Assembly (NCBI GenBank): GCA_045659165.1
Contig: JAZOWH010000105.1
Coordinates: 1 to 35,155 of the forward strand
Reading direction: 5' to 3'
Source of the DNA: Candidatus Fimenecus sp.
GTDB lineage: Bacteria > Bacillota > Clostridia > Oscillospirales > Acutalibacteraceae
Length of the DNA: 35,155 nt
Below, one piece after another: positions 11,564 to 35,155 of this stretch. The notes under the pieces are model-generated. The model saw nothing but the letters and a program-made list of their open reading frames with translations. It was not told the DNA's origin and made no database searches. Numbering within the stretch: the first letter of the stretch is position 1; each line of letters starts with the position of its first letter. The translations under genes were made by a program, and so were the position numbers.

Positions 11564-12769
11564 TTAACGTTCTACACTTAATATACCATCAACTTTTTCA
11601 ATACGAGAAATGAGGTTCTTCAAGTGGTCAATACCACTGACATTAACGGTAAGCTCAATAATTGTTCTTCCGTCTTTCATATCGTGGGTACTGATGCTTG
11701 TAATATTAACACGCATATTTGCAACCTGCATTGCAACTTCTGCCATAAGACCAACTCGTGAAAGACAAGTGAGCTGAAGTGTTGCTTTGTATTCTTCCTT
11801 CACATTCTGATTCCAATGTGCATTTACCCAACGAGCAGGCTCGGCACAGTTGATAACATCCTTTGGCACATTTGTACAATCTCTCTTATGAATTGAAACA
11901 CCGTGACCACGAGTGATAAATCCGATAATGTTGTCACCTGGCAATGGATTACAGCATTGTGAGAATTTGATAAGACAGTTATCAATTCCCTCAACAGTAA
12001 CACCATCTTTGTTTTTCTTTGAATTATCCTTAACAGTAACAACCTTGATTTCCTGACGGCTCTTATCATAATTTTTCTGATATTCTTCTTTGATATATGG
12101 CATCATACGGTTGATGGAAAGTCCACCATAACCGATTGCCGCATAGAAATCATCAACATTTTCAAGACGCTGACGCTCAGCAAGTTTCTTGATAAACTTT
12201 TGATAATCCTCGTCAGAAAGACGGATATAATTTCGTCTGAACTCGCGTTCAATTTCAGCTTTACCTTCAATAATATTTTCTTCTCGTTTTTCCTTTTTAA
12301 ACCAAGAACGAATTTTGCTCTTTGCTTGGCTTGTCTTTACAATATTGAGCCAGTCACGACTTGGACCTTTACCCTGTTGAGAAGACGTAAGAATTTCGAC
12401 AATTTCACCTGTTTTGATTACATAATCAATAGGCACAATTCGTCCGTCAACCTTTGCACCTGTCATCTTGTTACCAACAGCAGAGTGAATAGCATATGCA
12501 AAGTCAATTACGGTTGAGCCAACAGGCACATTGATAACGTCACCCTTTGGAGTATAGACAAATACTTCATCAGTAATAAGGTCGGTTTTAATTGTGGAAA
12601 CAAGTTCTCTTGCGTCCCCTGTCTCCTGCTGTGTTTCAAGCATTTCACGAATCCACTGCAAACGTTGGTCGAAGCTCTGTTTTCCACCTGAAACACCAAG
12701 CTTGTATTTCCAATGGGCTGCGATACCGAACTCGGCAGTACGGTGCATTTCCCAAGTTCTGATTTGCAC
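11564..12769 (-). CDS. Alternative reading: Rel C-terminal fragment (end of synthetase domain, TGS, helical and ACT regions)
   Basis: The ORF could only start at an internal GTG (12769) or the ATG of EMH. No RBS was noticed, so independent translation is doubtful. Confidence 0.3.
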   Translation of the reverse strand: [401 protein letters not shown]

Positions 12770-12817
12770 TTCAAAAGGTGTTCCCTCTTTACCGATTACA
12801 GTTGTATGAAGTGACTG

Positions 12818-13768
12818 TTACATATTTGGTTTTGGTGTTGAAATATAGTCTTTGAATCTGCCTGGAAGCGGATTATACATATCATGAATAATACCAAGGC
12901 AGTTATAACAGTCGATTACACTATCAACAATAATACGGACAGCATAAATATCGTAAATTTCGTCAAACTGTTTACCTTGCATATACATTTTACGATAAAT
13001 ACCATGAACAGACTTGATTCGTCCACTGATTTGAGCCTTTGGTACAGTTTCGTGAACTCTGTCACCTATTTTCTGTTTTATACTTTCAAGGAAATCGATT
13101 CCTGAATCATTTGATTTCTTTAAACTATCCTCGATTCCTTCATAAGCCACAGGGTCAAGAAATCGGATTGCTTTATCTTCAAGTTCTTCCTTTACGGAAC
13201 GGATACCGAGACGATGAGAAATAGGAGCAAAAATCTCAAGTGTTTCAAGAGCTTTATCACGCTGTTTCTGTGCTGGCATAAACTGTAAGGTTCTCATATT
13301 ATGCACACGGTCAGCAAGTTTAACGATAATAACACGAATATCCTTTGACATAGCAAGAAGCATTTTACGGATATTTTCTGCCTGTTGCTCTTCTTTTGCT
13401 TCACTTGAATTAATCTGAACCTGACCAAGTTTTGTAACACCGTCAACAAGTACTGCTACTTCTTCACCAAAGTCTTCAACAAGTTGTTCGATTGTGTATG
13501 GAGTATCTTCCACAACGTCGTGAAGAAGTGCTGCAACCAAGGATTGCCAATCCATACCCAAATCAACAAGTATGTCACACACAGCAATTGGATGAATAAT
13601 ATATGGCTCACCGGACCTGCGTTTTTGGTCACCATGATACTGATTTGCAATTGAAAATGCCTTATCAATAACCTTTAATTCTTCTTCATTGTGAATTGCC
13701 TTTATTCTGTTTCGTAAGTTCTCAAAAAGTTCATTCACATCTACATTTACATTAACAACCTCTGCCAT
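12818..13768 (-). CDS. Alternative reading: Rel N-terminal fragment (HD hydrolase domain plus first part of the synthetase domain)
   Basis: 316-aa ORF ending at the TAA at 12818-12820. Contains RRSGEPYIIHPIAV, LLHDVVEDT and ADRVHNMRT hydrolase motifs. Confidence 0.5.
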   Translation of the reverse strand: MAEVVNVNVDVNELFENLRNRIKAIHNEEELKVIDKAFSIANQYHGDQKRRSGEPYIIHPIAVCDILVDLGMDWQSLVAALLHDVVEDTPYTIEQLVEDFGEEVAVLVDGVTKLGQVQINSSEAKEEQQAENIRKMLLAMSKDIRVIIVKLADRVHNMRTLQFMPAQKQRDKALETLEIFAPISHRLGIRSVKEELEDKAIRFLDPVAYEGIEDSLKKSNDSGIDFLESIKQKIGDRVHETVPKAQISGRIKSVHGIYRKMYMQGKQFDEIYDIYAVRIIVDSVIDCYNCLGIIHDMYNPLPGRFKDYISTPKPNM

Positions 13769-23670: not shown

Positions 23671-25065
23671 TCAGTTTATCTCATCAAGATTTGCGCCTTT
23701 TGTTTCTTTGACACCTTTTGTGAACATAATTGCGGCAACTCCTACTGCCACAACGGAAATTGCAAGACATACCCACCAGATTGGGAATTTAATCATACCT
23801 ACGATTGCAAGGAGATAGCCTACAGCAAGGCCTATAATCACTAAAAGTCCTTCTGCACCAACTACTGATGCACGGATATCTGTCGGTACTTTTTCTGTCA
23901 TCATAACATTCATATAATCTCTGCCAATCCAATATGAACCCTGATAAAGTCCTGCGAAGAAACCGATAAGATATGGATTCCAACCACAGAGAATACCTGC
24001 TACAAAGAGAGAATATCCAATGATACAGGTAATTGAAAAGCCTGTCACAGTCACCTTTCTTCCAAGTTTATCTGCAATAAAACCTGAAAGGAATGTAATT
24101 GTTGCATAGACCACAGGAACCATAAAAAGAGCCTTAGTAATATCACTTGTACTCATACCTACTTTGTGCATTGAAGATTCAAAATAGAGGGCAATTGCAG
24201 GCATTGCAGAGTCGAATATAATGTGTGAAATAATAAGATTTTTTGTATCAGAATTTGAGAAGATGTATTTCACGCCATTAAAAACACCTGACTGATTTCG
24301 TTGTGCTTCCTTCTGTTGCTTTTTGAGTTCTTTTTCTGCTTGTCTTTCTTCGATTGGTCGTGAAAGATATTCAATTCTTTCATTTATAAACACCTTTGTA
24401 TCCTTTGCAAAGATTACAACGAGTAAAACTGCAATAAAGCCGATGACAGCAGGTACTAAAAAGATTTCACGCCATTTTGTAGCATCGTCACCCATAAGTG
24501 CATCACGAAGTGCAGGAATAAGAATAACACCTAAGATTCCGAAACTCTTTAAAAAGCTGTAAATTTTTGCACGATGTTTGTCCGGTGCTTCTTCAAGGAT
24601 ATAAATAATCTGGATATCGTGTCCCATAAAGAAGCTGATGATTGCAAAGCCAACAAGGAACATTATGTAGCTTGATGAAAGGTGTATTACAAGAAGACCC
24701 AAAGCCATACCAAGCGTTGAAATGGCAAAGAGCGGTTTTCGTCCCCATTTGTCGGCAAGTGCCTTATAAAACGGTGTAAAAATTCCTAAAACATAGGTGA
24801 AAACACCCACACCTGAATGAAGCGCAAGGCCTTCCTGAAATGTGTAATATTTACCCATAAAAGGATTATTCACAAAAAACTCTGTAACGAATGACGACTG
24901 CACTGTAACAGTAAGGTTACTTGTTACCTCGTCAAGAATATTTACGATTGCAATAAGAGCGAGTAACACAAAAAAGTATTTGCTACTAGTCCCCCTGCTT
25001 TGCATCTTTTTTAATCTTTTAATTTCTCTTTGTTCAGCTTGTGAGATTTTATCTGCTGTTTTCAT
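23671..25065 (-). CDS. MFS transporter
   Basis: About 12 predicted TM segments. MFS motif A-like ALADKWGRKP between TM2 and TM3, and a long basic central loop. AAAGGGGA RBS lies 7 nt before the ATG at 25065; the track start at 25071 is TTG. Confidence 0.8.
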   Translation of the reverse strand: MKTADKISQAEQREIKRLKKMQSRGTSSKYFFVLLALIAIVNILDEVTSNLTVTVQSSFVTEFFVNNPFMGKYYTFQEGLALHSGVGVFTYVLGIFTPFYKALADKWGRKPLFAISTLGMALGLLVIHLSSSYIMFLVGFAIISFFMGHDIQIIYILEEAPDKHRAKIYSFLKSFGILGVILIPALRDALMGDDATKWREIFLVPAVIGFIAVLLVVIFAKDTKVFINERIEYLSRPIEERQAEKELKKQQKEAQRNQSGVFNGVKYIFSNSDTKNLIISHIIFDSAMPAIALYFESSMHKVGMSTSDITKALFMVPVVYATITFLSGFIADKLGRKVTVTGFSITCIIGYSLFVAGILCGWNPYLIGFFAGLYQGSYWIGRDYMNVMMTEKVPTDIRASVVGAEGLLVIIGLAVGYLLAIVGMIKFPIWWVCLAISVVAVGVAAIMFTKGVKETKGANLDEIN

Positions 25066-25093
25066 TACCAAATCCCCTTTCAGTTATATCTCA

Positions 25094-25122
25094 ATTATAA
25101 GAAATAAAATAAGACCTGTCAA
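25094..25122 (-). promoter_or_regulatory. Perfect-consensus sigma-A promoter for the MFS gene
   Basis: On the minus strand: TTGACA (25122-25117), 17 nt, TATAAT (25099-25094). The -35 lies inside the descending arm of the upstream terminator hairpin. Confidence 0.55.
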
Positions 25123-25136
25123 CAAAGACAGGTCTT
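25111..25136 (-). terminator. Intrinsic terminator after paralog P1
   Basis: On the minus strand, aagacctgtc-tttgtt-gacaggtctt is followed by a U-rich attttattt, 24 nt after the P1 stop. Confidence 0.6.
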
Positions 25137-25159
25137 TCAATTTGCATTATTTTGATTTA

Positions 25160-26164
25160 TTAGCCCTTAAAACCACCGTTGAGTGTAACAACAAAGTCAA
25201 CAATTGCAGTTGCCTGCTGAACAGGTACTGTCATACCCAAACCTGAAATTGTCATATTGTTAAGAGTGATATTTACATAATAACTCCAAGTACCGTTGAT
25301 AATTCTGCCGTTACTGTCAATAGCAACCTTAAGTCTTGGGTTTTTGTATTGAAGTGTACAATCCTGGTCAGCAATTTCTGCAGTCATACCAAGTGCTGAG
25401 AATTGACCAACAACTGAATCAATATCACCAACAACTGAAATAGCATGGCCAACTGAACCACTGTACATATTTCCGTTACCCTTATCAACCTGTTCCTTCA
25501 TAACCATTTCGATTATGATGTTGTTGCCGTTCTTGTATGCTCTTGCAGCCTGAACATCAGAAACAGAAAGATTCTGATGACCACCTGTAATACCTTTAAT
25601 ATTCATTGAGTTATTACTGAGTGCTTTTGCCATAACGCCTTCTGCAAAGCTGAGCAATGGAGCAGCTATACCAGGTGCATTAAGTGAATTAGCACGAAGC
25701 TTCATATCCTGATATGAAGTTACTGAGTTATGAGTTCTTCCTGCCGCATGTCTATATGTTTCAACAATTTCTGCAGTTGACCACTTTGTAGGGTCAACAG
25801 TTGCCTGTTGATTATTATTCTGCTGATTGTTGTTCTGCTGAATATCCTGCTGACTATCCTGCTGGTTATAATTTGGTACAAAATCATTATACTGACCAGC
25901 ACCTTCAACATCCTTCAATTCAATCTGGCCTGATTCAATAAGGTAATTATAATATTCGAACATCTGACTACAATATTCACATTCGCAAGTAGGAACACCA
26001 TTCTTGTTCTTATTTGATGAAATTGCAAAAGAAATTGAGAAAACTGCTACAAAAAGAACTACAACTGCTAAAACAATAGCAATGATTTTCTTTGTTTTAT
26101 TTGACTTTTTAGGTGATGCAGGTTCTGTTGGCTGAACAGGCTGCATTGGTTCCATATGTTCCAT
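25160..26164 (-). CDS. Surface-anchored protein P1 with unassigned conserved C-terminal domain (paralog 1 of 3)
   Basis: GGGAGGA RBS. Pro-rich cytoplasmic tail, one TM (IIAIVLAVVVLFVAVFSISFAI), a CxCxxC motif and a Q/N-rich linker. The domain shared with 29485-30456 and 30615-31532 has these blocks: W(S/T)..EIV..Y, GITGG, SDV..A.AYK.G, VE(M/L).M.EQ.D, G(S/T).GH.I.V.G.I, Y.(N/D)P..KV.I...G.I..G.WSY and GGF at the end. Confidence 0.75.
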   Translation of the reverse strand: MEHMEPMQPVQPTEPASPKKSNKTKKIIAIVLAVVVLFVAVFSISFAISSNKNKNGVPTCECEYCSQMFEYYNYLIESGQIELKDVEGAGQYNDFVPNYNQQDSQQDIQQNNNQQNNNQQATVDPTKWSTAEIVETYRHAAGRTHNSVTSYQDMKLRANSLNAPGIAAPLLSFAEGVMAKALSNNSMNIKGITGGHQNLSVSDVQAARAYKNGNNIIIEMVMKEQVDKGNGNMYSGSVGHAISVVGDIDSVVGQFSALGMTAEIADQDCTLQYKNPRLKVAIDSNGRIINGTWSYYVNITLNNMTISGLGMTVPVQQATAIVDFVVTLNGGFKG

Positions 26165-26196
26165 AGTTATATCCTCCCGACTACATATATGAATTT

Positions 26197-26225
26197 ATTT
26201 TACTATATTTACACTTCTTTGTCAA
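26197..26225 (-). promoter_or_regulatory. Sigma-A type promoter in front of P1
   Basis: On the minus strand: TTGACA (26225-26220), 17 nt, TAAAAT (26202-26197). Confidence 0.5.
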
Positions 26226-26320
26226 TGAAAATGCTAAATACTCCATCAAGGCAAACAAAAACACCCACTTCATATAATCACCACAGAATTATGGCAATCT
26301 CAAAAAGTGAGTGTTATTTT

Positions 26321-27745
26321 TTATTTTCCTATTTCAATAATCGCTTTTTCAAATTCATTATAGAATTCTGTTACAATTTCCTTGTCTTTTTCAGTACCAA
26401 AGAAACTGATTGAAATATGCAAATCGCCATTGAAACTACCTATTGTTGCAACTGCACAAGGCTTACGCTTTGCAGCACCTGATGCATACATATCCAAAGG
26501 CTCATTTCCTTCCATTGAGAGCAGCTGTGTCTTTACAACACCAAGGTTGCTGACTGACAATGACGGATTACTGTAGCACATTTTAATAATCGGTTCAGCC
26601 TGTGCATAAACCATTGATTTATATGCAAAATCCAACAATGGTACACCATAAAGCCCCATAAACTCGTCATTCTTATAATTAAGACCGGCTTTTTTTACTG
26701 CTTCAAGTGTCTGAAGAGGAGTTTCACCCACCTTATCAACTGTACAGTTAATAAATGAAACCTCGTTTGTATAACCAAGTTTTGCTGGATTTTTGATATA
26801 TCTTCTCAAATCCACAGCAGTTGTCACATTAACAGCACTATCCCCTCTCAATGAAGCAAGTTTTCTATAAGCAGACATATATGCAGTTATCAGCAAATCA
26901 TTTCCGCTACATCCTGCTTTTTTAGCAACATTCAATGCAGGTTTAAAGACTTCACCACTAATCTTTTTGCGTGTCAGAATGGGTTTATCATCTTTATTTT
27001 CAGGTGTATAAGGGAAAATATTTTTCACCTTTGATGCAGGGTTTGTAAAAAGAGCTTTTGCCTTTTTACGTTTCTCTTTCTCAAAATCACCATACACCTG
27101 GTCAAAATCTCTTGGTCCCTGACTGTAATCAATAGGACTTATACCTTTTTGAACAAGGTTTGTATAGTTACGGCATATATCAGCAACAAAAGTGAAGAAG
27201 CCTGTACCGTCAACGCACATATGATTCACAAGATAACATACAGTTGTTTTACCGGAATCATAAAAAAGATGAACCTTAAGCTGGATATTACTATCTGTTG
27301 GAATTTCCTGTGTAAAGAAAGCATCTCTTTTTGAAATAGTTGGTTCTTCCTCAGATGATGTTACAACCTCATCAATATGATATGGCATTGGCTTCCAATA
27401 TGGTGAAATCGGACTATAAACCACTTTAGAACGGAATATATGTGCCTTTTCCAACAATCCCATAACCGCAGTTTTATAATTTCTTTCATCAACTATATAG
27501 TCATAGACAAGCTCTAGTCTTTCCATTCTATCCATGTATTTACGACACATATAATTGATTTTATCAAGCAATTCGCAGGATATTTTTTTAGGACGTTTAC
27601 ATAATTTTCCGTTTTTAATTTCACTTTCAATAAGGTCAACACAGAATTTTTCGTTGTCTGCACCACTTTCAACAAGTTCTGAAAGTCTTGCATTTACTGC
27701 TGAATTATTTACTGAAAGTTGTTTTAAAACTTTATCACAATTCAT
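26321..27745 (-). CDS. HxxxD acyltransferase of the condensation / CAT-like superfamily (stand-alone C-domain-like or alcohol acyltransferase-like)
   Basis: VNHMCVDGTGF (His codon at 27221-27223) matches the (H)HxxxDG catalytic motif at about the expected distance from the N-terminus. Size of about 474 aa fits. AAGGGG RBS lies 9 nt before the ATG at 27745, and only 13 nt separate it from the GH3 stop. Confidence 0.55.
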   Translation of the reverse strand: MNCDKVLKQLSVNNSAVNARLSELVESGADNEKFCVDLIESEIKNGKLCKRPKKISCELLDKINYMCRKYMDRMERLELVYDYIVDERNYKTAVMGLLEKAHIFRSKVVYSPISPYWKPMPYHIDEVVTSSEEEPTISKRDAFFTQEIPTDSNIQLKVHLFYDSGKTTVCYLVNHMCVDGTGFFTFVADICRNYTNLVQKGISPIDYSQGPRDFDQVYGDFEKEKRKKAKALFTNPASKVKNIFPYTPENKDDKPILTRKKISGEVFKPALNVAKKAGCSGNDLLITAYMSAYRKLASLRGDSAVNVTTAVDLRRYIKNPAKLGYTNEVSFINCTVDKVGETPLQTLEAVKKAGLNYKNDEFMGLYGVPLLDFAYKSMVYAQAEPIIKMCYSNPSLSVSNLGVVKTQLLSMEGNEPLDMYASGAAKRKPCAVATIGSFNGDLHISISFFGTEKDKEIVTEFYNEFEKAIIEIGK

Positions 27746-27758
27746 TATGATTTGCCCC

Positions 27759-29453
27759 TTAGTCAATTACATGAGACAAGAAGAATTCTCTTCTTTCATC
27801 ACTATCAATAACCTTGATTGGCTTAACCTGATTAAGGTTTGCACCACGAGCTCTGAGTACCTCACGATAATCGTCATATGTGCCGTGACGAAGGAATTTA
27901 ACTTCACATTTTCCGAGAGCACCACTATCGATAAGTGGTTTAACAGAAACATTACCCTCGCAGAGTTTTTCTTCAAATACTTTTGTATATCTTTCCCATT
28001 CACTCTTTGACACAGGCTTTGCAGTTTCAACAAGAAGTGCATAGTGTCCTGGTGAAGTTGTACGGTCAGGATAAATGCTATAACCGATAAATGTTTCATT
28101 AAGTTCTTCACACATATTTGCTACGATTTCGTCAAATGCCATTGAACTGATTTTTTCACCACTGATATTTGCAATCTGGTTAAGTCTGTAACAGAATGTA
28201 ATTTTTGGTGATTCGTGGTAGAAACCTGTTACACGAATTACGTCTTCAATTCTGTAACGATAGAAACCACTTGTATTTGTAAGAATGATTTCATATTCCT
28301 TGCCAACTTCAAGGTCCTTGATTGTAAGAAGGTTATCATAATCATCTGAATCAATAGGACGGAATTCGTAGAAACCATTCTGTGGAAGCATTACATATTC
28401 AAATGAATTGAGTTCAATTGGAACTGCCATCATTGCTTCTGTTGCAGCATATCCAAGATAGTGAATAGCCAAGTCATCACCAAGATATCTCTTGAGTTTC
28501 TTTTCATAGAAAGCAAGAGCACCTGTACCCATACCATACATCCATGAAACGTTTGGCCAGATTCTTGGCACGATTGGTGATACGTCAAAGCCTTTACGGA
28601 ATTCTGCACGAAGTTCTTCAGCTCGTTTTGGATTTGGTTTGAGTGACTTCTGAAGTTTTACTCGCATTTCATCAGGACATCTTATACTGCTGTTGATAAC
28701 ACCTTTTTCAATATCGTCACAAATCATTTCCCAATTTTCTTCTAAATAGAAGAACATAGATTCAAGTGTTGTGATGAAAATTGTACCAAGATAACTTACA
28801 TTTCTGTGCTGTAAAGCAAAGAGTAATTTAAGGTAATGTGAATCATAATCAAGGTTTCCATCAGCAAACTGTAATTCTTTAGGTGATGTTCCAATGAATG
28901 GAACAACAGGCTTAATATTAAGAAGTGGAATTGAAGAAAGACAACTTACTGTTTTTCCACTATCAAGTTTACGACAGTTTACTTCCGCAGTGAGCAAGCC
29001 CTTCTGTGGTGGCATTTTTTTGCCCTGTGATTTGAAATACTTATAAGCACAACCAACAGGTGCACTGAAACTGAAACACTGACAAACCCATTCAGCCCAT
29101 GCTGAAAGTGGTACAAGTTTTGACTTACCTGTACTACCTGATGACTCTGTAAATCTACGTACAAAAGCTGCTGTGTTAAGGTTCTTTTCACCATTTGCCA
29201 TTCTTTGTACATACTCGTCATAATCATAGTAGTTTGTAAGTGGAACAAGTTTTTTGTAATCTTCGTAACTATGTACATCAGCAAAATTGTTCTTTTTGCC
29301 GTAAACTGTATTCTTGTTCTTTTTCATCAATGATTTCAACACAGTTTCCTGAACTTTGTTTGCATTCTTGGCATAGATTTCCAATTTAGCAAGTTCCATT
29401 CGTCCAAGCATAATACCAAAATTGGTGTTCATTCTAGCTAATATAGGATTCAT
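27759..29453 (-). CDS. GH3-family adenylate-forming acyl-acid amido synthetase-like protein
   Basis: Three GH3 core motifs seen: FTESSGSTGKSKLVP (the P-loop-like SSGTTxGxxK motif), YLGYAATEAMMAV (the YASSE-like motif), and FYRYRIEDVIRVTGFYHESPKITFCYR (plant GH3 has YRYR.GDV..V.GF.N..P...F..R). Start set at the ATG at 29453, after GGGGTG. Confidence 0.75.
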   Translation of the reverse strand: MNPILARMNTNFGIMLGRMELAKLEIYAKNANKVQETVLKSLMKKNKNTVYGKKNNFADVHSYEDYKKLVPLTNYYDYDEYVQRMANGEKNLNTAAFVRRFTESSGSTGKSKLVPLSAWAEWVCQCFSFSAPVGCAYKYFKSQGKKMPPQKGLLTAEVNCRKLDSGKTVSCLSSIPLLNIKPVVPFIGTSPKELQFADGNLDYDSHYLKLLFALQHRNVSYLGTIFITTLESMFFYLEENWEMICDDIEKGVINSSIRCPDEMRVKLQKSLKPNPKRAEELRAEFRKGFDVSPIVPRIWPNVSWMYGMGTGALAFYEKKLKRYLGDDLAIHYLGYAATEAMMAVPIELNSFEYVMLPQNGFYEFRPIDSDDYDNLLTIKDLEVGKEYEIILTNTSGFYRYRIEDVIRVTGFYHESPKITFCYRLNQIANISGEKISSMAFDEIVANMCEELNETFIGYSIYPDRTTSPGHYALLVETAKPVSKSEWERYTKVFEEKLCEGNVSVKPLIDSGALGKCEVKFLRHGTYDDYREVLRARGANLNQVKPIKVIDSDERREFFLSHVID

Positions 29454-29484
29454 ATTAATCACCCCGAAAAATTATATCTTAATT

Positions 29485-30456
29485 TTAAAAACCGCCACCA
29501 GTTGTTACAACATAGTCAATATCACCTGATGCATCCTCAACGAGAACTTTTTCAATCTGAAGACCTCTTACAGTAACACTGACAACATAACTCCAAGTAC
29601 CTTTTTCAATAACACCCTTTTCATTAATCTTAACCTTCACCACAGGGTTCACATAATGAAGTTCAACAAACGCATCTTTAAAGTTGATTGTCCATGAAGG
29701 GAAATTATCAGCAACAACCGCAATGTTACCAACAACAGAAATTCCGTGACCTGTTGTACCCTTGAATGTATCACCATATGCGTCATCTTTCTGCTCAACC
29801 ATTGTCATTTCGACAATTGTATATTTACCCTCTTTATATGCCTTTGCTGTCTTTACATCAGATGGAACAAGGTCATTATAGCCACCTGTGATACCATCAA
29901 ACTCAATTGAATTTGCTTTAAGTGCAGCTTTCATAATAGGCATTGCGAGTTCAATAAGGAATTCCAAAGCACTATTACTGAGTTTAACCTTTATTCCCTC
30001 ATCCATTGTCATTTTCTGAATTGACTTAACACCTGTTGAGTTGTTAGCTGCTTTTTTGTAGTAATTTACGATTTCAGCCTTTGTCCATTCAGCAGGATTC
30101 TTTGGAAGTTCACGTTCAGGTTCTTTTGTATCTTCCTGATTTTCGCTATCCTGCACCGCATCATCTGTTTCAACACCAGTCTCTGTGTTCTCATCAACCA
30201 TTTCGTCTGATACGCCATCATTTGACACAAACCCATCATCGTCTGTACCAGGTGCATCATCTGCAATAATAAAATCTGAACCAGTCTGCTCAAGTTGTTT
30301 CTGAGCTGTTGATTTACCTATAACAAGGACTCCCATTGCAATAGCAACAGCAAGGACAACAGCAAGAAAACTTGTAAAACCTGAAGCTGCCTTTTCCTTC
30401 TTCATTTTATTAATTTCCACCTGTTCCGGAGTTAAAGGTGTTTTTGATTTTGCCAT
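29485..30456 (-). CDS. Surface-anchored protein P2 with the same unassigned C-terminal domain (paralog 2 of 3)
   Basis: AAAGGGGAA RBS. Basic cytoplasmic tail, one TM (FTSFLAVVLAVAIAMGVLVIG), an acidic D/E-rich linker, then the shared domain ending TTGGGF. Roughly half the domain residues are identical to P3 in my by-eye alignment. Confidence 0.75.
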   Translation of the reverse strand: MAKSKTPLTPEQVEINKMKKEKAASGFTSFLAVVLAVAIAMGVLVIGKSTAQKQLEQTGSDFIIADDAPGTDDDGFVSNDGVSDEMVDENTETGVETDDAVQDSENQEDTKEPERELPKNPAEWTKAEIVNYYKKAANNSTGVKSIQKMTMDEGIKVKLSNSALEFLIELAMPIMKAALKANSIEFDGITGGYNDLVPSDVKTAKAYKEGKYTIVEMTMVEQKDDAYGDTFKGTTGHGISVVGNIAVVADNFPSWTINFKDAFVELHYVNPVVKVKINEKGVIEKGTWSYVVSVTVRGLQIEKVLVEDASGDIDYVVTTGGGF

Positions 30457-30495
30457 AACAAAATTCCCCTTTTAAATACAACTTTATATTTAATC

Positions 30496-30524
30496 ATTTT
30501 ACCCCTTTTGTGTTCATTTGTCAA
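30496..30524 (-). promoter_or_regulatory. Sigma-A type promoter of the P2-GH3-acyltransferase(-P1) unit
   Basis: On the minus strand: TTGACA (30524-30519), 17 nt, TAAAAT (30501-30496). The -35 flank atttgtcaacgaaaa is 14/15 identical to the one in front of P3. Confidence 0.5.
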
Positions 30525-30547
30525 CGAAAAACATTGTTGTATACCCT

Positions 30548-30587
30548 TCATTTTGCACTTTGCGCTTTGCACTCTGCCTTTTGCATT
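30548..30587 (-). repeat. Terminator-adjacent TGCAAA motif, copy B (expanded)
   Basis: The minus strand reads aatgcaaaaGGcagagtgcaaaGCGCAAAGTGCAAAatga directly after the T7 tract of the P3 terminator. It contains four (T)GCAAA units. Confidence 0.6.
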
Positions 30588-30610
30588 AAAAAAACTCCCT
30601 TTCGGGAGTT
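30586..30610 (-). terminator. Intrinsic terminator after P3
   Basis: On the minus strand, aactccc-gaaa-gggagtt is followed by T7. The hairpin starts 4 nt after the stop codon. Confidence 0.75.
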
Positions 30611-30614
30611 TTTC

Positions 30615-31532
30615 TTAGAATCCGCCACCTACGACGATTACATATTTCATTATTGCATCTGCTTTATTAACCATAATTCCGCTGATTTCAAGATGTCTGA
30701 TTTTGATGTCAGCATTATAACTCCATACGCCTTTTTCAATGATACCCTTATCATTGATTTTAACCTTAACTGTTGGGTCGGCATAACGGATTTTAATATC
30801 TGCTTCCTTGTATTTAATATCAAACTGTGGGAACTGGTCAACTGCTGTTGCGATATTGCCAAGAACATTGATTGCGTGACCAACTGAACCTGACTGAGCA
30901 TCACCATACATACCGTCTACTTGTTCAACCATATACAACTCAACGACTGTATAGTTACCCTGCTTATATGCCTTTGCAGACTTTACATCAGATGCCTGAA
31001 GCTTTGTAAAGCCACCTGTAAGTCCGTTATAAGTCATAGCGTTATTCTTAATAACTGTGCTGATAGCAGGCTTAATCATATTAAGGAAGAAGTTAAGAGC
31101 TCCATCACCATCGTTGACAACGAGTTTTGCAAGTTCCATTGTCTGTGATGATTTTACAGTAGGATGAGTTTTGATTGCAGACTGTTTATAATACTCAACA
31201 ATCTGCTCCTTTGACCACTTTGCAGGGTCATCAGGAAGTTCTTCTTTTACTGTTGTTGATTCGACTTCCTTATCTTCTGTATCTTCTTTGTCATTTTTAT
31301 CATCAACCTTGTCAGTTGAAGGTTCTTCTTCACCTTCTTCAGTTGAAGGTTCTTCTGTCACAGATTCATCAGTTGAAGGTTCAACCTGAACATCGTCTGA
31401 ATTTACAGCTTTATCCTCTGTTGTGCTTTCTGTATTCACATCAGTTGTAGGGGTCTCATCATTGTTACCACCACAAGCCACAAAAACAAACATCATTGAC
31501 AATACTAAAAGAATAGCAATTATTTTTTTCAC
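30615..31532 (-). CDS. Lipoprotein P3 with the same unassigned C-terminal domain (paralog 3 of 3)
   Basis: AGGGAGG RBS lies 8 nt before the GTG at 31532. Signal peptide VKKIIAILLVLSMMFVFVAC with a lipobox-like FVAC (Cys codon at 31473-31475). Acidic linker with EPST repeats, then the shared domain ending VVGGGF. Confidence 0.75.
   Translation of the reverse strand: MKKIIAILLVLSMMFVFVACGGNNDETPTTDVNTESTTEDKAVNSDDVQVEPSTDESVTEEPSTEEGEEEPSTDKVDDKNDKEDTEDKEVESTTVKEELPDDPAKWSKEQIVEYYKQSAIKTHPTVKSSQTMELAKLVVNDGDGALNFFLNMIKPAISTVIKNNAMTYNGLTGGFTKLQASDVKSAKAYKQGNYTVVELYMVEQVDGMYGDAQSGSVGHAINVLGNIATAVDQFPQFDIKYKEADIKIRYADPTVKVKINDKGIIEKGVWSYNADIKIRHLEISGIMVNKADAIMKYVIVVGGGF
31312..31382 (-). repeat. 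In-frame coding repeat in the P3 linker
   Basis: The 14-nt unit tcagttgaaggttc occurs three times (31312, 31339, 31369) at 27- and 30-nt spacing, encoding EPST(D/E). Confidence 0.8.
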
Positions 31533-31564
31533 AATATCAGCCTCCCTAAATATTGTATACAATC

Positions 31565-31593
31565 ATACTACAATAATTCATAATATTTGTCAA
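31565..31593 (-). promoter_or_regulatory. Sigma-A type promoter in front of P3
   Basis: On the minus strand: TTGACA (31593-31588), 17 nt, TAGTAT (31570-31565). It begins 6 nt after the upstream stop codon. Confidence 0.45.
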
Positions 31594-31599
31594 CGAGAA

Positions 31600-33192
31600 T
31601 TACTGAACAGATTCTATCATTTCCACAAATGATTTCACAAAAACTGAACCCGCAGTTCTGCTAACGATATTTACTTCCTCATTTTCACCGATTAATGAGT
31701 GGTATTCATTGTCACGAAGAACATATCCTGCCTGGTCATTACAAAGACCATAAACCATTACATTTGGAACATCTATAGCATCTGTCAATGGCGCATAATC
31801 CCATGATTCACCTGTCCATGCTGCATCTCCTGATTCAGGTCCACCAAAGATAAGCATAGGGTCAAACTCACCTGGACACATAAAGACACCGACTTTGTTG
31901 CCGAGTTCCATATATCCGATTTCAGTAACCATTATCTTCTTCAAGCCATCTTTCACAATTACTGGTGTAAGAATATCCTGACGAGCAGCAAGAGTGAGTA
32001 TTCCGTTATCAACATTCAAATAAACTTCTTTGTGTGCCACATTGAGTACAGGCTCAAGCTTAATATCATTGTTGATTTTAATTATCTTATCTGCAAGTGC
32101 ATAACCGTAGCTTGTGATATTTTCAATATCAGTTGCACCATCTTTGTTTGTCAATTCTTTTTCTTGTCGGATTGCAAGTTCAGCACCGATTACATAAACT
32201 ACATTTGCACCAGCTTTTTCATTAATTGCCTTTTCAATATAGTAAGGATAGTCGGCAGTAAGTTCATCAGGTCCTGCACCCATACCTGTACAATGCATTG
32301 AGCCCTGAAGAATCCATGTTTCTTTTGAACCATCTGCAGGTACGAAACGAAGTCTGTGCATATTTGAGTCAAATGACCAAGGGTCACGTGCATCACGCAT
32401 ATATTCACTTACATCTGTGTAGCCATAATAAAGGTTACCTTTTTTCATATCCTTGATTGCACTTTCAACACAATCAACTGTTTTTTGGAAAAGGTTATCC
32501 ATAAACTTTTGATTCTTTACAACCTTATACTTATTAAAGATACCACCTAATGCAGCGTTTGATGTATTGATAATAAGACCTGATAAAAGTGGAATATTCA
32601 TACCAAGAGTATCAATACATGAATGCTGATGTAAAACAGAAACATTTAAACTGATTATATTATTGTTAGCAACAGCCTGTTCAACCTTGTTACGGATTGT
32701 CTGGACATCCCCTCGTGAAAGTCCAAAACCATCAATAACTGCATGAACCACAATACCGCTTACACCATCACTTACAGCGTAAACTCTTACTCGTTGGTCA
32801 TCATTGATTTTTTTAGGCACTCTACCTTCAAACACCTCAAGTGACCCTGCAAGGAAATATTCCCCATTCATAATGTCAAGGCCCTCAAGGAGTGATGCTC
32901 CTGCATAACCCATATACCATGCTGAATCCTTCTGTGTGTTTTTGTCAAACTTCTTTTCGCCTTCATAAAAATTATTAGCTTCGTAATCTTTAAGTTTTTC
33001 CCAATCCCCGTCATACCCAGGCCAGAATACATTAAGCACAGTAAGAATTCTGTGGATAAGCACATCAAGGCAAAGATTAAGAGAGTTTTCAATATTGATA
33101 GTTTCTGTCTTTACAAAAGCAGAAACAGGCACACTGAAAACTGAAAACATCATAACGAGAGAAAGGACTATTGCGAGAATCTTTTTTGTCAT
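31600..33192 (-). CDS. Secreted hydrolase, tentatively neutral/alkaline ceramidase-like (N-terminal domain family)
   Basis: Signal peptide MTKKILAIVLSLVMMFSVFSVPVSA after an AAGGGG RBS; the ATG at 33192 is used and the 34-codon upstream extension is rejected. The layout LAG....R....I.D...VR.YAV.DG....VVHAVIDGFG, then LHQHSCIDT (compare THTHSGP), then PGEF and N.QAGYV resembles bacterial ceramidase-domain proteins. Recognised by eye only. Confidence 0.4.
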   Translation of the reverse strand: MTKKILAIVLSLVMMFSVFSVPVSAFVKTETINIENSLNLCLDVLIHRILTVLNVFWPGYDGDWEKLKDYEANNFYEGEKKFDKNTQKDSAWYMGYAGASLLEGLDIMNGEYFLAGSLEVFEGRVPKKINDDQRVRVYAVSDGVSGIVVHAVIDGFGLSRGDVQTIRNKVEQAVANNNIISLNVSVLHQHSCIDTLGMNIPLLSGLIINTSNAALGGIFNKYKVVKNQKFMDNLFQKTVDCVESAIKDMKKGNLYYGYTDVSEYMRDARDPWSFDSNMHRLRFVPADGSKETWILQGSMHCTGMGAGPDELTADYPYYIEKAINEKAGANVVYVIGAELAIRQEKELTNKDGATDIENITSYGYALADKIIKINNDIKLEPVLNVAHKEVYLNVDNGILTLAARQDILTPVIVKDGLKKIMVTEIGYMELGNKVGVFMCPGEFDPMLIFGGPESGDAAWTGESWDYAPLTDAIDVPNVMVYGLCNDQAGYVLRDNEYHSLIGENEEVNIVSRTAGSVFVKSFVEMIESVQ

Positions 33193-33222
33193 AAAAACTA
33201 CCCCTTTTAATTTATGTTTTCT

Positions 33223-33251
33223 ATTATACATCCTTTTATAAAATTCTTCAA
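33223..33251 (-). promoter_or_regulatory. Sigma-A type promoter of the ceramidase-like gene
   Basis: On the minus strand: TTGAAG (33251-33246), 17 nt, TATAAT (33228-33223). Confidence 0.45.
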
Positions 33252-33281
33252 TAAGAAAGTGACAAATTTCCTTAAATGTAA

Positions 33282-33314
33282 AACTTTTACACAATTTTTC
33301 AATGTGTAAAAGTT
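33282..33314. promoter_or_regulatory. Perfect 11-bp inverted repeat in the divergent control region
   Basis: aacttttacac (33282-33292), 11-nt spacer, gtgtaaaagtt (33304-33314). It lies upstream of the -35 elements of both divergent promoters. Confidence 0.4.
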
Positions 33315-33326
33315 AATTCGATTTCC

Positions 33327-33355
33327 TTGACAACTGTCAATGAATATAGTAAAAT
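33327..33355 (+). promoter_or_regulatory. Sigma-A type promoter of the ANL ligase operon
   Basis: TTGACA (33327-33332), 17 nt, TAAAAT (33350-33355). Confidence 0.5.
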
Positions 33356-33374
33356 TTGCATTGACATGTGTCAA
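33327..33374. promoter_or_regulatory. Twin 14-bp palindromes TTGACAnnTGTCAA (candidate operator pair)
   Basis: ttgacaACtgtcaa at 33327-33340 overlaps the -35. ttgacaTGtgtcaa at 33361-33374 lies just downstream of the -10. Centres are 34 bp apart. Confidence 0.5.
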
Positions 33375-33452
33375 AAGAATTTTTTTTCGACACTATCTGA
33401 GATAAATGTTAATTATTTTTAATAAAAATCAAAGAAAGGTTTAATTGAGGAT

Positions 33453-35009
33453 ATGAGTAAACCACAGCTTTTAACAGTAAAAGATATCGTTAATTTTGCT
33501 GCTGAAAAATACGGTGAGAAAGACTTTTGTAAGTTTTTCCGTGACAGCGAAATCGAAATCAAAAATTTCAGCGAATTCCGTGAAGATTGTCTTGCTGTTA
33601 GCAGATACATAAAAACTATTGAAAAAGAAAAAATGCACATTGCATTTATCGGCAAAACAAGTTACGAATATATTGCTTGTCTTACAGGTATGATTTGTAG
33701 CGGTAATGTTGTTGTACCATTTGACCCTAATATTTCTGTGGAAGAAGCTTGTCAGCTTTTTGACGACGCTGACATCCAGATGCTTTTCTGTGAAGAAGAA
33801 TTTTTAGGTAAAGCAGAAGAAATCCAGAAAACATATAAGGGCATCCGTCAGGTTGTATCTCTTGGTGACTGGCACTGGTTTGACAACATTTTCAAAACAT
33901 ATTCTGCTGATTCAGAATATGCTCACCTTTCAGATATCGAGATTGACCCATATGAATGTGCATTGATTATCTACACATCAGGTACAACAGGTGAAAGAAA
34001 GGGCGTTATGCTCACTAACCACAACCTTGCATCTAACTCATGTTACGATACATACAAGGCTGCTGATGGTGAGGTTTGTCTTTCAGTTTTACCTATGCAC
34101 CATGTTTTCTGTTATGCATGTGACGTGCTTAAGGTACTTTATGACGGTTCTGCAATTTGTCTTAACGGTGCACTCACAAACATTTACAGAAACTTCCTTA
34201 TATTTGAACCAACAAACACAAGAATCGTTCCACTTCTTTGTAAAGCAATTATTACAAAAATCAAAATTCAGGAAAAGAAACATCCTGAACTTTCTCCTCG
34301 TGAAGCTGCTGAGCTTGTTGTTGGTAAGCGTCTTACAAGATTCATTGCTGGTAGTGCTTTCTTAAGTGGTGCTTTAATTGATGAATTTGCAAAGTACGGA
34401 ATTACTGCTCGTCAGGGTTACGGTATGAGTGAATGTAGTCCTCGTATCACAACATCTGACTTTTCAGAAGATAATAAATATTCAAATGGTGTTCTCACAG
34501 GTGTTGACGATGTAAGAGTTGTTGACGGTGAAATTCAGGTTAAGGGTCCTTCAGTTATGAAAGGATACTACAAAAAGCCTGAAAGAACTGCTGAGGCATT
34601 CACAGAAGACGGATATTTACATACAGGTGACTTAGGTTATATTGAAAATAACCACATCTACCTCGTTGGTAGAAAGAAAAACCTTATCATCCTTTCAAAC
34701 GGTGAAAACATCTCTCCTGAAGAACTTGAAAACAAGTTTGTTGACGACGGAATCGTGAAAGAAATCGTTGTACGTGGTGAAAAGGATACAATCATTGCAG
34801 AAATTTTCCCTGATAATGACCTTGCTAACACATTGGGAATTACAGATATTCCTGCTGAAATCAGCAAGATTGTTGACAGAGTAAATACAACTCTTAACAC
34901 AGACAGACAGATTCATTCGTTTGTTATAAGAGAAACTCCATTCGAGAGAACTTCAACAGGCAAAATCAAACGTGCACAATTTAACTTTGCGGAGGATGAA
35001 GCAAAATGA
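33453..35009 (+). CDS. ANL-superfamily adenylate-forming enzyme (long-chain fatty acyl-CoA/AMP ligase-like)
   Basis: IIYTSGTTGERKGVMLTNHNL (A3/P-loop), GYGMSEC (A5), GDLGY...YLVGRKKNLIILSNGENISPEELE (A7-A8) and TSTGKIKR (A10). Confidence 0.8.
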   Translation: MSKPQLLTVKDIVNFAAEKYGEKDFCKFFRDSEIEIKNFSEFREDCLAVSRYIKTIEKEKMHIAFIGKTSYEYIACLTGMICSGNVVVPFDPNISVEEACQLFDDADIQMLFCEEEFLGKAEEIQKTYKGIRQVVSLGDWHWFDNIFKTYSADSEYAHLSDIEIDPYECALIIYTSGTTGERKGVMLTNHNLASNSCYDTYKAADGEVCLSVLPMHHVFCYACDVLKVLYDGSAICLNGALTNIYRNFLIFEPTNTRIVPLLCKAIITKIKIQEKKHPELSPREAAELVVGKRLTRFIAGSAFLSGALIDEFAKYGITARQGYGMSECSPRITTSDFSEDNKYSNGVLTGVDDVRVVDGEIQVKGPSVMKGYYKKPERTAEAFTEDGYLHTGDLGYIENNHIYLVGRKKNLIILSNGENISPEELENKFVDDGIVKEIVVRGEKDTIIAEIFPDNDLANTLGITDIPAEISKIVDRVNTTLNTDRQIHSFVIRETPFERTSTGKIKRAQFNFAEDEAK

Positions 35010-35155
35010 TAGAAAAAACATTACCAGATGGCAAAGTTGTCAAAGCGTATCCTATCTCAAACTCACAGAAAATGATGTTCTTAATGTCACTCAAATACGG
35101 TTCAGGATATCCTGTTAACAACATCGGTTGCGGTTACTACTGGCAGGGTGAAATG
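35006..35155 (+). CDS. Partial ORF (first 50 codons), possibly a condensation-domain-like protein
   Basis: ATGA overlap with the ligase stop. YPISNSQKMMFLMS resembles the N-terminal C1-type motif of condensation domains (S..Q..m....). Too short to be sure. Confidence 0.3.
   Translation, partial: MIEKTLPDGKVVKAYPISNSQKMMFLMSLKYGSGYPVNNIGCGYYWQGEM

Follow-up and report, generated by a model that had tools for sequence, protein, structure and literature searches.

What does a Clostridial locus make that combines two carboxylate-adenylating enzymes, two condensation-superfamily enzymes, a secreted hydrolase, a transporter and three paralogous surface proteins, and does it act as one system? This question was raised by positions 23671-35155 of a 35,155-nucleotide stretch of Candidatus Fimenecus sp. 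(Acutalibacteraceae; assembly GCA_045659165.1, contig JAZOWH010000105.1), the whole of which is called the window here. From the letters of the sequence, an earlier note had read this locus as one undescribed envelope module that makes, exports and possibly re-hydrolyses an acylated small molecule or lipid. We found that the core synthetase encoded on the plus strand adds a member to a described family of fatty-acid-amide (FAA) enzymes, and that the remaining genes fall into separable units. For the region as a whole, we see about an even chance that three loosely coupled units make N-acyl amides, export them and hydrolyse them outside the cell.

An open reading frame (ORF) map returned eight ORFs and a ninth cut by the contig end, in the order and on the strands that the note had described. 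Gene starts were refined from homolog lengths and ribosome-binding sites. With ATG starts, the reported gaps of 31 nucleotides between P2 and GH3 and 13 nucleotides between GH3 and HxxxD were reproduced, and the stop codon of ANL and the start codon of C share the sequence ATGA, in agreement with the proposed coupling. The enzyme classes were also correctly recognized: two enzymes adenylate carboxylates (GH3 and ANL), two belong to the condensation superfamily, and these accompany a secreted hydrolase of predicted neutral-ceramidase fold and an MFS transporter. The genes are as follows.

33453-35009, plus strand: ANL enzyme, OaaA-type fatty-acid adenylating, 518 amino acids (aa), Pfam AMP-binding at 1.9e-44
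35006-35155, plus strand: C protein, OaaC-type stand-alone condensation enzyme, first 50 codons, cut by the contig end
31600-33192, minus strand: ceramidase-like protein (P0121), 530 aa, with a signal peptide and a predicted neutral-ceramidase fold
30615-31532, minus strand: P3, a lipoprotein (lipobox FVAC) of 305 aa, with a GTG start after AGGGAGG
29485-30456, minus strand: P2, membrane-anchored, first gene of the P2-GH3-HxxxD operon
27759-29453, minus strand: GH3 acyl acid amido synthetase, 564 aa, of an ATP-dependent, carrier-independent amide ligase family
26321-27745, minus strand: HxxxD protein, a stand-alone condensation-superfamily acyltransferase, 474 aa as in its homologs
25160-26164, minus strand: P1, with an N-terminal transmembrane (TM) helix, a Cys-rich CECEYC segment, a Q/N-rich linker and the P domain
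23671-25065 (ORF to 25071), minus strand: MFS transporter, 464 aa from its ATG, Pfam MFS_1 at 5e-31

The plus-strand ANL enzyme was 38% identical to OaaA over 466 aa (BLASTP, E=3e-91; OaaA sequence from Table S5 in the supplement to PMC13142362), compared with about 5e-27 for the best ANL structure in the PDB. The window's own 50-aa fragment of the C protein is an N-terminus that it has in common with its ortholog of 499 aa in the related locus L001. As the window's ceramidase-like protein (P0121) is on record from a contig of exactly 35,155 bases, the window is probably one whole MAG contig, and the C gene would be cut by an assembly end. This ortholog matched, over its full length and with E=3.5e-67, the structure 12KH of OaaC, which is the stand-alone condensation enzyme for fatty-acid amides in Coprococcus eutactus (PMC13310621); the best canonical nonribosomal peptide synthetase (NRPS) C domain reached 2.6e-10. 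The ortholog's motif FHHLAMDAYS fits the FAA-family pattern (D/H)HxxxD(S/A), and it is a (D/H)HxxxD motif followed by S or A, rather than G, that defines FAA C enzymes (PMC13310621). A search to the right for a carrier protein had been recommended; indeed, in at least 15 orthologous loci, A (518 aa), C (499 aa) and an acyl carrier protein (ACP) of 76 aa are encoded in a row, the ACP gene following the C gene just past the point at which the window's contig ends. The ACP in the related loci retains its Ser site. On these homologies, the window's ANL and C proteins, with a predicted off-contig ACP, belong to the described Clostridial FAA NRPS-like family, whose A protein charges the ACP with a fatty acid, which the C protein then condenses with a free small amine (PMC13310621). 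The view that no described system has this composition was thus wrong for the plus-strand half of the locus.

Described clusters of this kind are OaaA/OaaC/OaaACP in C. eutactus and ecf/ebf in Enterocloster (Chang et al. 2021 via PMC13310621; PMC10871352). As in the OaaA/OaaC/OaaACP clusters, three free-standing A, C and ACP proteins are encoded side by side, and the hosts are gut Clostridia. The gene order here is A-C-ACP, whereas consecutive accession numbers of OaaC, OaaACP and OaaA suggest the order C-ACP-A in C. eutactus. In known FAA clusters, too, there are genes for a hydrolase and for a lipid-transport or lipid-handling accessory protein (PMC10871352). In contrast to them, the present locus contains no PPTase or SCP2-like gene, and its accessory genes encode the secreted protein of predicted neutral-ceramidase fold and a P-domain lipoprotein, a combination that we did not find described with FAA clusters. 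A further likeness concerns the hm-NAS genes of gut Bacteroidetes, whose products are N-acyl amides active on G-protein-coupled receptors (GPCRs) (Cohen et al. 2017 via PMC10871352). The proposed product class, N-acyl amides of gut commensals, is the same; however, hm-NAS enzymes are acyl-ACP-dependent N-acyltransferases of unrelated enzymology.

The synteny analysis covered 83 related loci; the family is confined to metagenome-assembled genomes (MAGs) labelled Candidatus Fimenecus, Acutalibacteraceae, Oscillospiraceae or Clostridia. In 18 of 18 distinct related loci, the ANL gene is divergent from, and adjoins, a P-containing operon, and the ceramidase-like gene is the first gene of that operon in all of them except L035. 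P3 always follows the ceramidase-like gene in this arrangement, which we call block A (ACP-C-ANL divergent from ceramidase-like-P3) to distinguish it from block B (P2-slot-P1-MFS, where the slot is a position of variable content). Block A stays together when it is relocated (L028, L033, L042 and L059).

The sequence between the two divergent operons of block A contains a 14-bp palindrome, TTGACANNTGTCAA, twice (33327-33340 and 33361-33374), with the copies 34 bp apart. The same palindrome was found in 23 related loci, in one or two copies each, amid otherwise poorly conserved intergenic sequence (for example, at 6742-6755 of L001). In every locus for which coordinates were checked (for example, L001, L033, L035 and L059), it lies between the ANL gene and the ceramidase-like gene, or between the ANL gene and P3. 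Each half of TTGACANNTGTCAA doubles as a -35 hexamer, and the sites could be operators or back-to-back promoters. This arrangement suggests that the divergent ANL-C-ACP and ceramidase-like-P3 operons are probably co-regulated. The signals read in this region and in the rest of the locus are as follows.

33193-33452, both strands: divergent control region, with consensus promoters on both strands and two palindrome copies
33327-33355, plus strand: promoter before the ANL gene, near sigma-70 consensus
30589-30611, minus strand: intrinsic terminator after P3, CTCCCGAAAGGGAG then T7 (about 30611-30589); AAAACTCCCGAAAGGGAGTTTTTTT read directly
30524-30496, minus strand: promoter-like TTGACA-17-TAAAAT before P2
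26225-26197, minus strand: promoter-like TTGACA-17-TAAAAT before P1
25111-25136, minus strand: intrinsic terminator after P1, a 10-bp stem with 5 GC pairs, then a T-run
25122-25094, minus strand: promoter before the MFS gene, 12/12 consensus

Both terminators that the note had located, after P1 and after P3, are thus present. The promoters of the MFS, P1, P2 and ANL genes consist of TTGACA-17-TATAAT or TTGACA-17-TAAAAT and match the sigma-70 consensus at 11-12 of 12 positions. Several strong sigma-70 promoters indicate that the region is made of several strongly promoted units and is not one operon; together, the terminators and the separate consensus promoters split it into at least four transcription units.

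The label 'ceramidase-like' was upheld at the level of the fold and could not be detected at the level of sequence. Searches of Pfam, of NCBIfam and of PDB sequences with phmmer gave no usable match for the 530-aa protein. When the family was scanned against Pfam, Ceramidase_alk (PF04734) remained below threshold (11.1 against 32.1 bits, E=0.15, in 2 of 17 members), a family profile matched nothing among PDB sequences, and hhalign against a 64-aa fragment of the human ceramidase Zn site aligned the wrong region (E=0.19). An AlphaFold2 model built on 17 homologs had a pLDDT of 56 and a pTM of 0.67, with an unreliable C-terminal third. Foldseek returned exactly four significant matches for this model, all of them neutral ceramidases (2ZXC, 2ZWS and 4WGK), with E-values from 1e-12 to 1e-11, probability 1.0 and TM-scores of 0.37-0.42 over 424-480 columns; the next match was at 5e-3. 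The model accordingly supports a neutral-ceramidase fold for the secreted protein. The predicted fold and the secretion or lipid anchoring resemble those of the bacterial neutral ceramidase, whereas the window protein is 100-150 residues shorter than the neutral ceramidases (PF04734; 2ZWS, 2ZXC, 4WGK) and has no significant sequence similarity to them. Invariant in its family are H188-Q-H190-S191 and, about 110 residues on, H300; the H-x-H-S pattern resembles the THTHSGP region of the ceramidase Zn site by eye alone, as hhalign leaves the two regions unaligned. More than 1,248 homologs were found, all unnamed. We also observed that the signal peptide of orthologs ends in a lipobox Cys (ASAC, VSAC, FGC and FAC in L002, L012, L014 and L019), and that the window's copy has VSAF at this site (33100-33192). 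The relatives would thus be lipoproteins, and the window copy is probably released or anchored differently.

The second pair of biosynthetic genes lies on the minus strand. The GH3 protein contains the N, M and C domains of the Pfam GH3 family (1.8e-76, 7e-25 and 3e-17; 257.8, 87.3 and 63.6 bits against a cut-off of 23.6) and matched structures of plant GH3 enzymes with E-values of up to 1e-53. Its three nucleotide-binding motifs, which we take to be defined as in the plant enzymes, are intact in the translation (SSGSTGKSK, YAATE and YRYRIED). These three motifs are also conserved in bacterial GH3 proteins (PMC12493201). Its partner is less easily assigned: profile scores remained below thresholds for PapA_C (21.5 against 30 bits) and for WS/DGAT (23.9 against 310), and many of its homologs carry PF00668 on record. 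Among ten diverse members of the HxxxD family, NHMxxDGxG, VDLRR and SVSN(V/L)G were invariant.

The HxxxD gene lies directly downstream of GH3 in the window and in L021, L031, L035, L084, L086 and L087. The two genes are adjacent and in the same order, with the cassette inverted, in L014, L018 and L020. Three distant HxxxD homologs (39-50% identity) were likewise found directly downstream of GH3, in unrelated surroundings: beside a teichoic-acid polymerase gene, beside MFS genes and a second GH3, and, together with a lipase gene, on a stretch that resembles a mobile element. P, ceramidase-like and A-C-ACP genes are missing from all three places. GH3+HxxxD is therefore an autonomous, swappable two-gene cassette.

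Two described systems resemble this cassette in part. In Singulisphaera acidiphila, the GH3 enzyme OlsH makes N-acyl ornithine, and a second enzyme, OlsI, O-acylates the product (PMC12493201). Both there and here, a bacterial GH3 shares an operon with a second acyl-transferring enzyme, and the expected first step is a carrier-independent, ATP-dependent N-acylation. However, the window's GH3 reached only 68.6 bits against the OlsH model (NCBIfam NF052613, cut-off 620), its partner is a condensation-superfamily HxxxD protein and not an OlsI-type alpha/beta hydrolase, and the host is a Gram-positive bacterium of the Clostridium class. With PapA5/PapA and WS/DGAT acyltransferases, the HxxxD protein has in common the HxxxDG motif, a length of about 470 aa and weak profile matches; as in the FAAL-PapA pairs, it stands beside an adenylating enzyme. 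It differs from them in that its partner is GH3 and not a fatty-acyl-AMP ligase (FAAL) or polyketide synthase, that its operon has no carrier protein, and that the matches lie below the curated thresholds. A literature search focused on GH3, which did not target Clostridial aminolipids, returned no GH3-plus-condensation pathway in gut bacteria or Clostridia, the OlsH work alone being found.

We compared the cassette's position among the related loci. The Fimenecus-like backbone reads Mfd-DUF554-(CDF or sulfatase)-Metallophos, then MFS-P1-slot-P2-P3-ceramidase-like, then the divergent ANL-C-ACP. The slot holds GH3+HxxxD in the window, L021, L031, L035 and L039, and it is empty in the closest relatives, L001-L003, whose neighbouring genes are 74-95% identical and which have no GH3+HxxxD. 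In L004 (10971-15809), L011, L012, L015, L029 and L070, it holds instead genes for a GtrA-like protein, GH3 (in some cases two), DUF819 and an MfnA-like decarboxylase. GtrA-like proteins are small membrane proteins, and the MfnA-like enzyme is a pyridoxal-phosphate-dependent decarboxylase of the amino-acid type; its presence suggests that it supplies a biogenic amine as the acceptor for GH3. In L014, L018 and L020, the inverted GH3+HxxxD pair is diverged and lies between P1 and the MFS gene.

Four MAGs each carry blocks A and B on two different contigs. About 10 kb of flanking sequence without the other block was present in L033 and L059 (block A) and in L008 and L015 (block B); the other partner loci end at contig ends. 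The junction of the two blocks in the window is the P3 terminator. These results do not agree with one fixed module, as the GH3+HxxxD pair is absent, inverted or replaced in sister genomes and recurs elsewhere without P genes, and the two halves of the region can lie apart. In relatives, mobility genes stand beside the cluster or beside the GH3+HxxxD cassette, namely an rve integrase (L001 2043-3029), TnpV (L004 7977-8342) and Mob_Pre with a resolvase (L087 718-2487); they are consistent with mobility of the cassette.

That the three surface proteins are paralogs was borne out by BLASTP (E=3e-43 for P1 against P2 and 2e-68 for P3 against P2; 37-44% identity), the similarity extending over about 235 aa. 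In each of them, an anchor or lipobox at the N-terminus is joined through a low-complexity linker to a C-terminal domain of about 200 aa. The lipid-related role proposed for them obtained no direct support. The P domain matched no NCBIfam family and no Pfam family even at E=5, and a Foldseek search of the PDB with its model (pLDDT 78) gave nothing at E of 1e-3 or below. A lipid-binding fold of the LolA/LppX/LprG type was considered and rejected, since LolA, LolB, LppX and LprG appeared at E=0.1-0.55 with probabilities of at most 0.14 and TM-scores of about 0.2; weak matches to levivirus maturation proteins in BFVD were rejected as well. A conserved antisense ORF within the P genes ('c1') was judged to be a shadow ORF and not a gene. 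The invariant polar residues of the domain (S, D, E, E, Q, D, H and K) suggest that it has a defined binding or catalytic site.

When 1.84 billion representative proteins were searched exhaustively with a profile, only 355 clusters with the P domain were found; it is a small orphan extracellular family. Most P homologs in Acutalibacteraceae genomes are single genes in varied housekeeping contexts, and GH3+HxxxD recurs without them. Read from translations, the neighbours of distant homologs were unrelated housekeeping genes, namely GH51-like, ComEC, SIS isomerase, XRE regulator, DnaC-like and serine hydrolase genes. Among distant members, the P domain is joined to GH16, GH85_C, dockerin or choline-binding repeats, and further fusions combine the domain with dockerin and DUF6273 or with an N-terminal zinc ribbon and a TM segment (for example, P0402, P0405, P0400, P0500 and P0423). 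The P domain is thus a portable, generic extracellular module with, if anything, glycan or cell-wall partners. P1 also has an extra conserved segment, CECEYCSQMFEYYNYLIESGQ, after its membrane anchor (25900-26010, residues about 52-85), which P2 and P3 do not have; in the L004 ortholog, the Cys residues of this P1-type segment are replaced.

The MFS transporter could not be assigned to a specific NCBIfam subfamily. A P gene and an MFS gene lie beside Metallophos-DUF554-Mfd in L008-L010, L036, L061, L068 and L071, and this pair of one P gene and the MFS gene is the minimal arrangement at the Mfd site. The MFS gene is therefore a conserved partner of the P gene at this chromosomal position. In L001 (12417-13271) and several sister loci, a multi-pass membrane protein of 284 aa is encoded between P1 and the MFS gene; in the window, the P1-MFS gap is 88 nucleotides and contains no such gene. 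This protein has the motifs SVGMH (SxxxH) and HSTWH (HxxxH), and neither Pfam nor the PDB gave a match, the sole NCBIfam match being TIGR00297, far below threshold (15.6 bits, cut-off 205.85). Its two motifs are reminiscent of membrane hydrolases of the alkaline-ceramidase/PAQR type; with no Pfam, NCBIfam or PDB support, this assignment is a tentative lead.

These observations can be combined into the scheme of three loosely coupled units stated at the outset. Unit A would comprise the A-C-ACP fatty-acid-amide synthetase and, divergent from it across the common palindromic control region, the secreted ceramidase-fold hydrolase and P3. Unit B would be the P2-GH3-HxxxD operon, and unit C the P1 and MFS pair conserved at the Mfd site, for transport. 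Carboxylic acids, probably fatty acids, would be activated with ATP in the cytoplasm by two routes. In one, ANL would load the acyl group on the ACP, and C would join this group to a free small amine, yielding an N-acyl amide. In the other, GH3 would form an acyl-adenylate and amidate an amine or amino acid without a carrier, after which HxxxD may add a further acyl group to the product, following the logic of OlsH and OlsI. The MFS transporter would move a product or a substrate across the membrane. Outside, the secreted enzyme may cleave N-acyl amides into fatty acid and amine, either for re-use or for turnover of the product. The P proteins would stand on flexible stalks outside the membrane; ligand binding at their conserved polar site is a guess. 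An N-acyl amide or ester, as the earlier note had proposed, would be the natural product of this enzymology.

Several points weigh against this scheme. All the synteny evidence comes from one narrow MAG lineage, so that common ancestry may account for part of the linkage between the genes. At 55-59% identity, ceramidase-like homologs are found among housekeeping genes and away from any A-C-ACP genes, the ceramidase model is of low confidence (pLDDT 56) and is joined to the known enzymes by no sequence method, and its catalytic residues are putative. P homologs at 40-50% identity are solitary, and the fusion partners of distant P domains point to glycan or cell-wall biology rather than to lipids. 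What the analysis shows are the gene identities, the homologies, the separability of the units and the common control region; the substrates, the products, the direction of transport and any role of the P proteins are inferred. Some of these points are shared by the main rival, in which the genes are neighbours by history: a plastic hot spot beside Mfd would have collected them, the P proteins, the ceramidase-fold protein and the MFS transporter would serve general surface or glycan functions, and coupling would be confined to unit A. The variable content of the slot, the inverted cassette, the insertion-sequence or TnpV genes near it in relatives, the solitary P and ceramidase-like homologs and the P fusions all favour this possibility. 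However, the ceramidase-like-P3 pair travels with A-C-ACP on relocation, both operons share a conserved palindromic control region, and amide synthetases beside an enzyme of amidase fold make coherent chemistry. We accordingly consider a purely historical neighbourhood unlikely, though it is the most credible of the alternatives.

The opposite extreme is a single integrated module, in which all nine or ten genes would cooperate on one envelope acyl-conjugate, from its construction and export to its presentation and re-hydrolysis, and the three P paralogs would be its dedicated components outside the membrane. The genes are indeed contiguous, with short gaps and matching chemistry, and in the genus P genes accompany three amide-forming sets (A-C-ACP, GH3+HxxxD and GH3+decarboxylase). 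Nevertheless, the closest relatives lack GH3+HxxxD entirely, the pair occurs elsewhere without P, ceramidase-like or A-C-ACP genes, the halves are on different contigs in four MAGs, and at least four transcription units are predicted; of all the explanations weighed here, we give this one the slimmest chance. The GH3+HxxxD pair might instead make a membrane aminolipid (an acyloxyacyl amino acid resembling ornithine lipid) or acylate a precursor of an envelope polymer, on which P2 and P1 would act. N-acylation of an amino acid followed by O-acylation has a precedent in OlsH/OlsI, the HxxxD enzyme resembles the WS/DGAT and PapA5 O-acyltransferases, one distant pair lies beside a teichoic-acid glycerophosphotransferase and another beside a lipase, and the alternative cassette includes a GtrA-like membrane protein. 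The great distance of the GH3 from OlsH, a partner of another type than OlsI and the empty result of the GH3-focused literature search, which was not aimed at Clostridial aminolipids, argue against it, and an MFS transporter and a decarboxylase suit small molecules better, so that we regard an aminolipid product as doubtful. It is improbable that the ceramidase-fold enzyme and the P proteins form a previously unknown extracytoplasmic FAA arm, which would capture and cleave host or dietary N-acyl lipids, such as ceramides, on the cell surface and so provide the fatty acid as well as the amine for the co-regulated OaaA/C/ACP to re-join. GH3+HxxxD would then open a second, carrier-independent way to amino lipids with two acyl groups.

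Outside this locus, the window carries ordinary chromosomal genes, among them those for a sigma factor, dUTPase, MazG, RecJ, RelA, Pth, Mfd and others. An origin from a mobile element or phage was rejected on account of the flat composition, the housekeeping flanks and the absence of mobility genes from the window, and the locus contains no regulator gene; the note had likewise reported neither a mobility gene nor a regulator inside the window. The RelA/SpoT homolog (11564-13768, minus strand) is split into two same-frame ORFs by one TAA at 12818-12820, which replaces the Tyr of a conserved synthetase motif (PKPNM*QSLHTTV, compared with the expected YQSLHT). This stop could be a true nonsense mutation that marks a pseudogene, or an assembly error.

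Fatty-acid amides of gut Clostridia act on human GPCRs and are linked to inflammatory bowel disease. To our knowledge, it is not known how gut Clostridia supply the substrates of these lipids and handle them outside the cell. The GH3-focused literature search returned no description of the accessory set of ceramidase-fold and P proteins, of the conserved putative operator or of the recurring pair of GH3 and condensation-like genes. All functional statements made here are drawn from MAG sequence. If the extracytoplasmic FAA arm that we regard as improbable were real, the P domain would define a new class of lipid-handling proteins on Gram-positive cell surfaces. The GH3-plus-condensation-like pair recurs across genomes of the Acutalibacteraceae type, has no described function and, after the OlsH work of 2025, stands out as a candidate for a new pathway to N-acyl compounds or aminolipids in Gram-positive bacteria of the gut. 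The ceramidase-fold enzyme and the FAA synthetase, placed under a common conserved, putative operator, provide a concrete, testable link from the hydrolysis of host lipids to amide synthesis.

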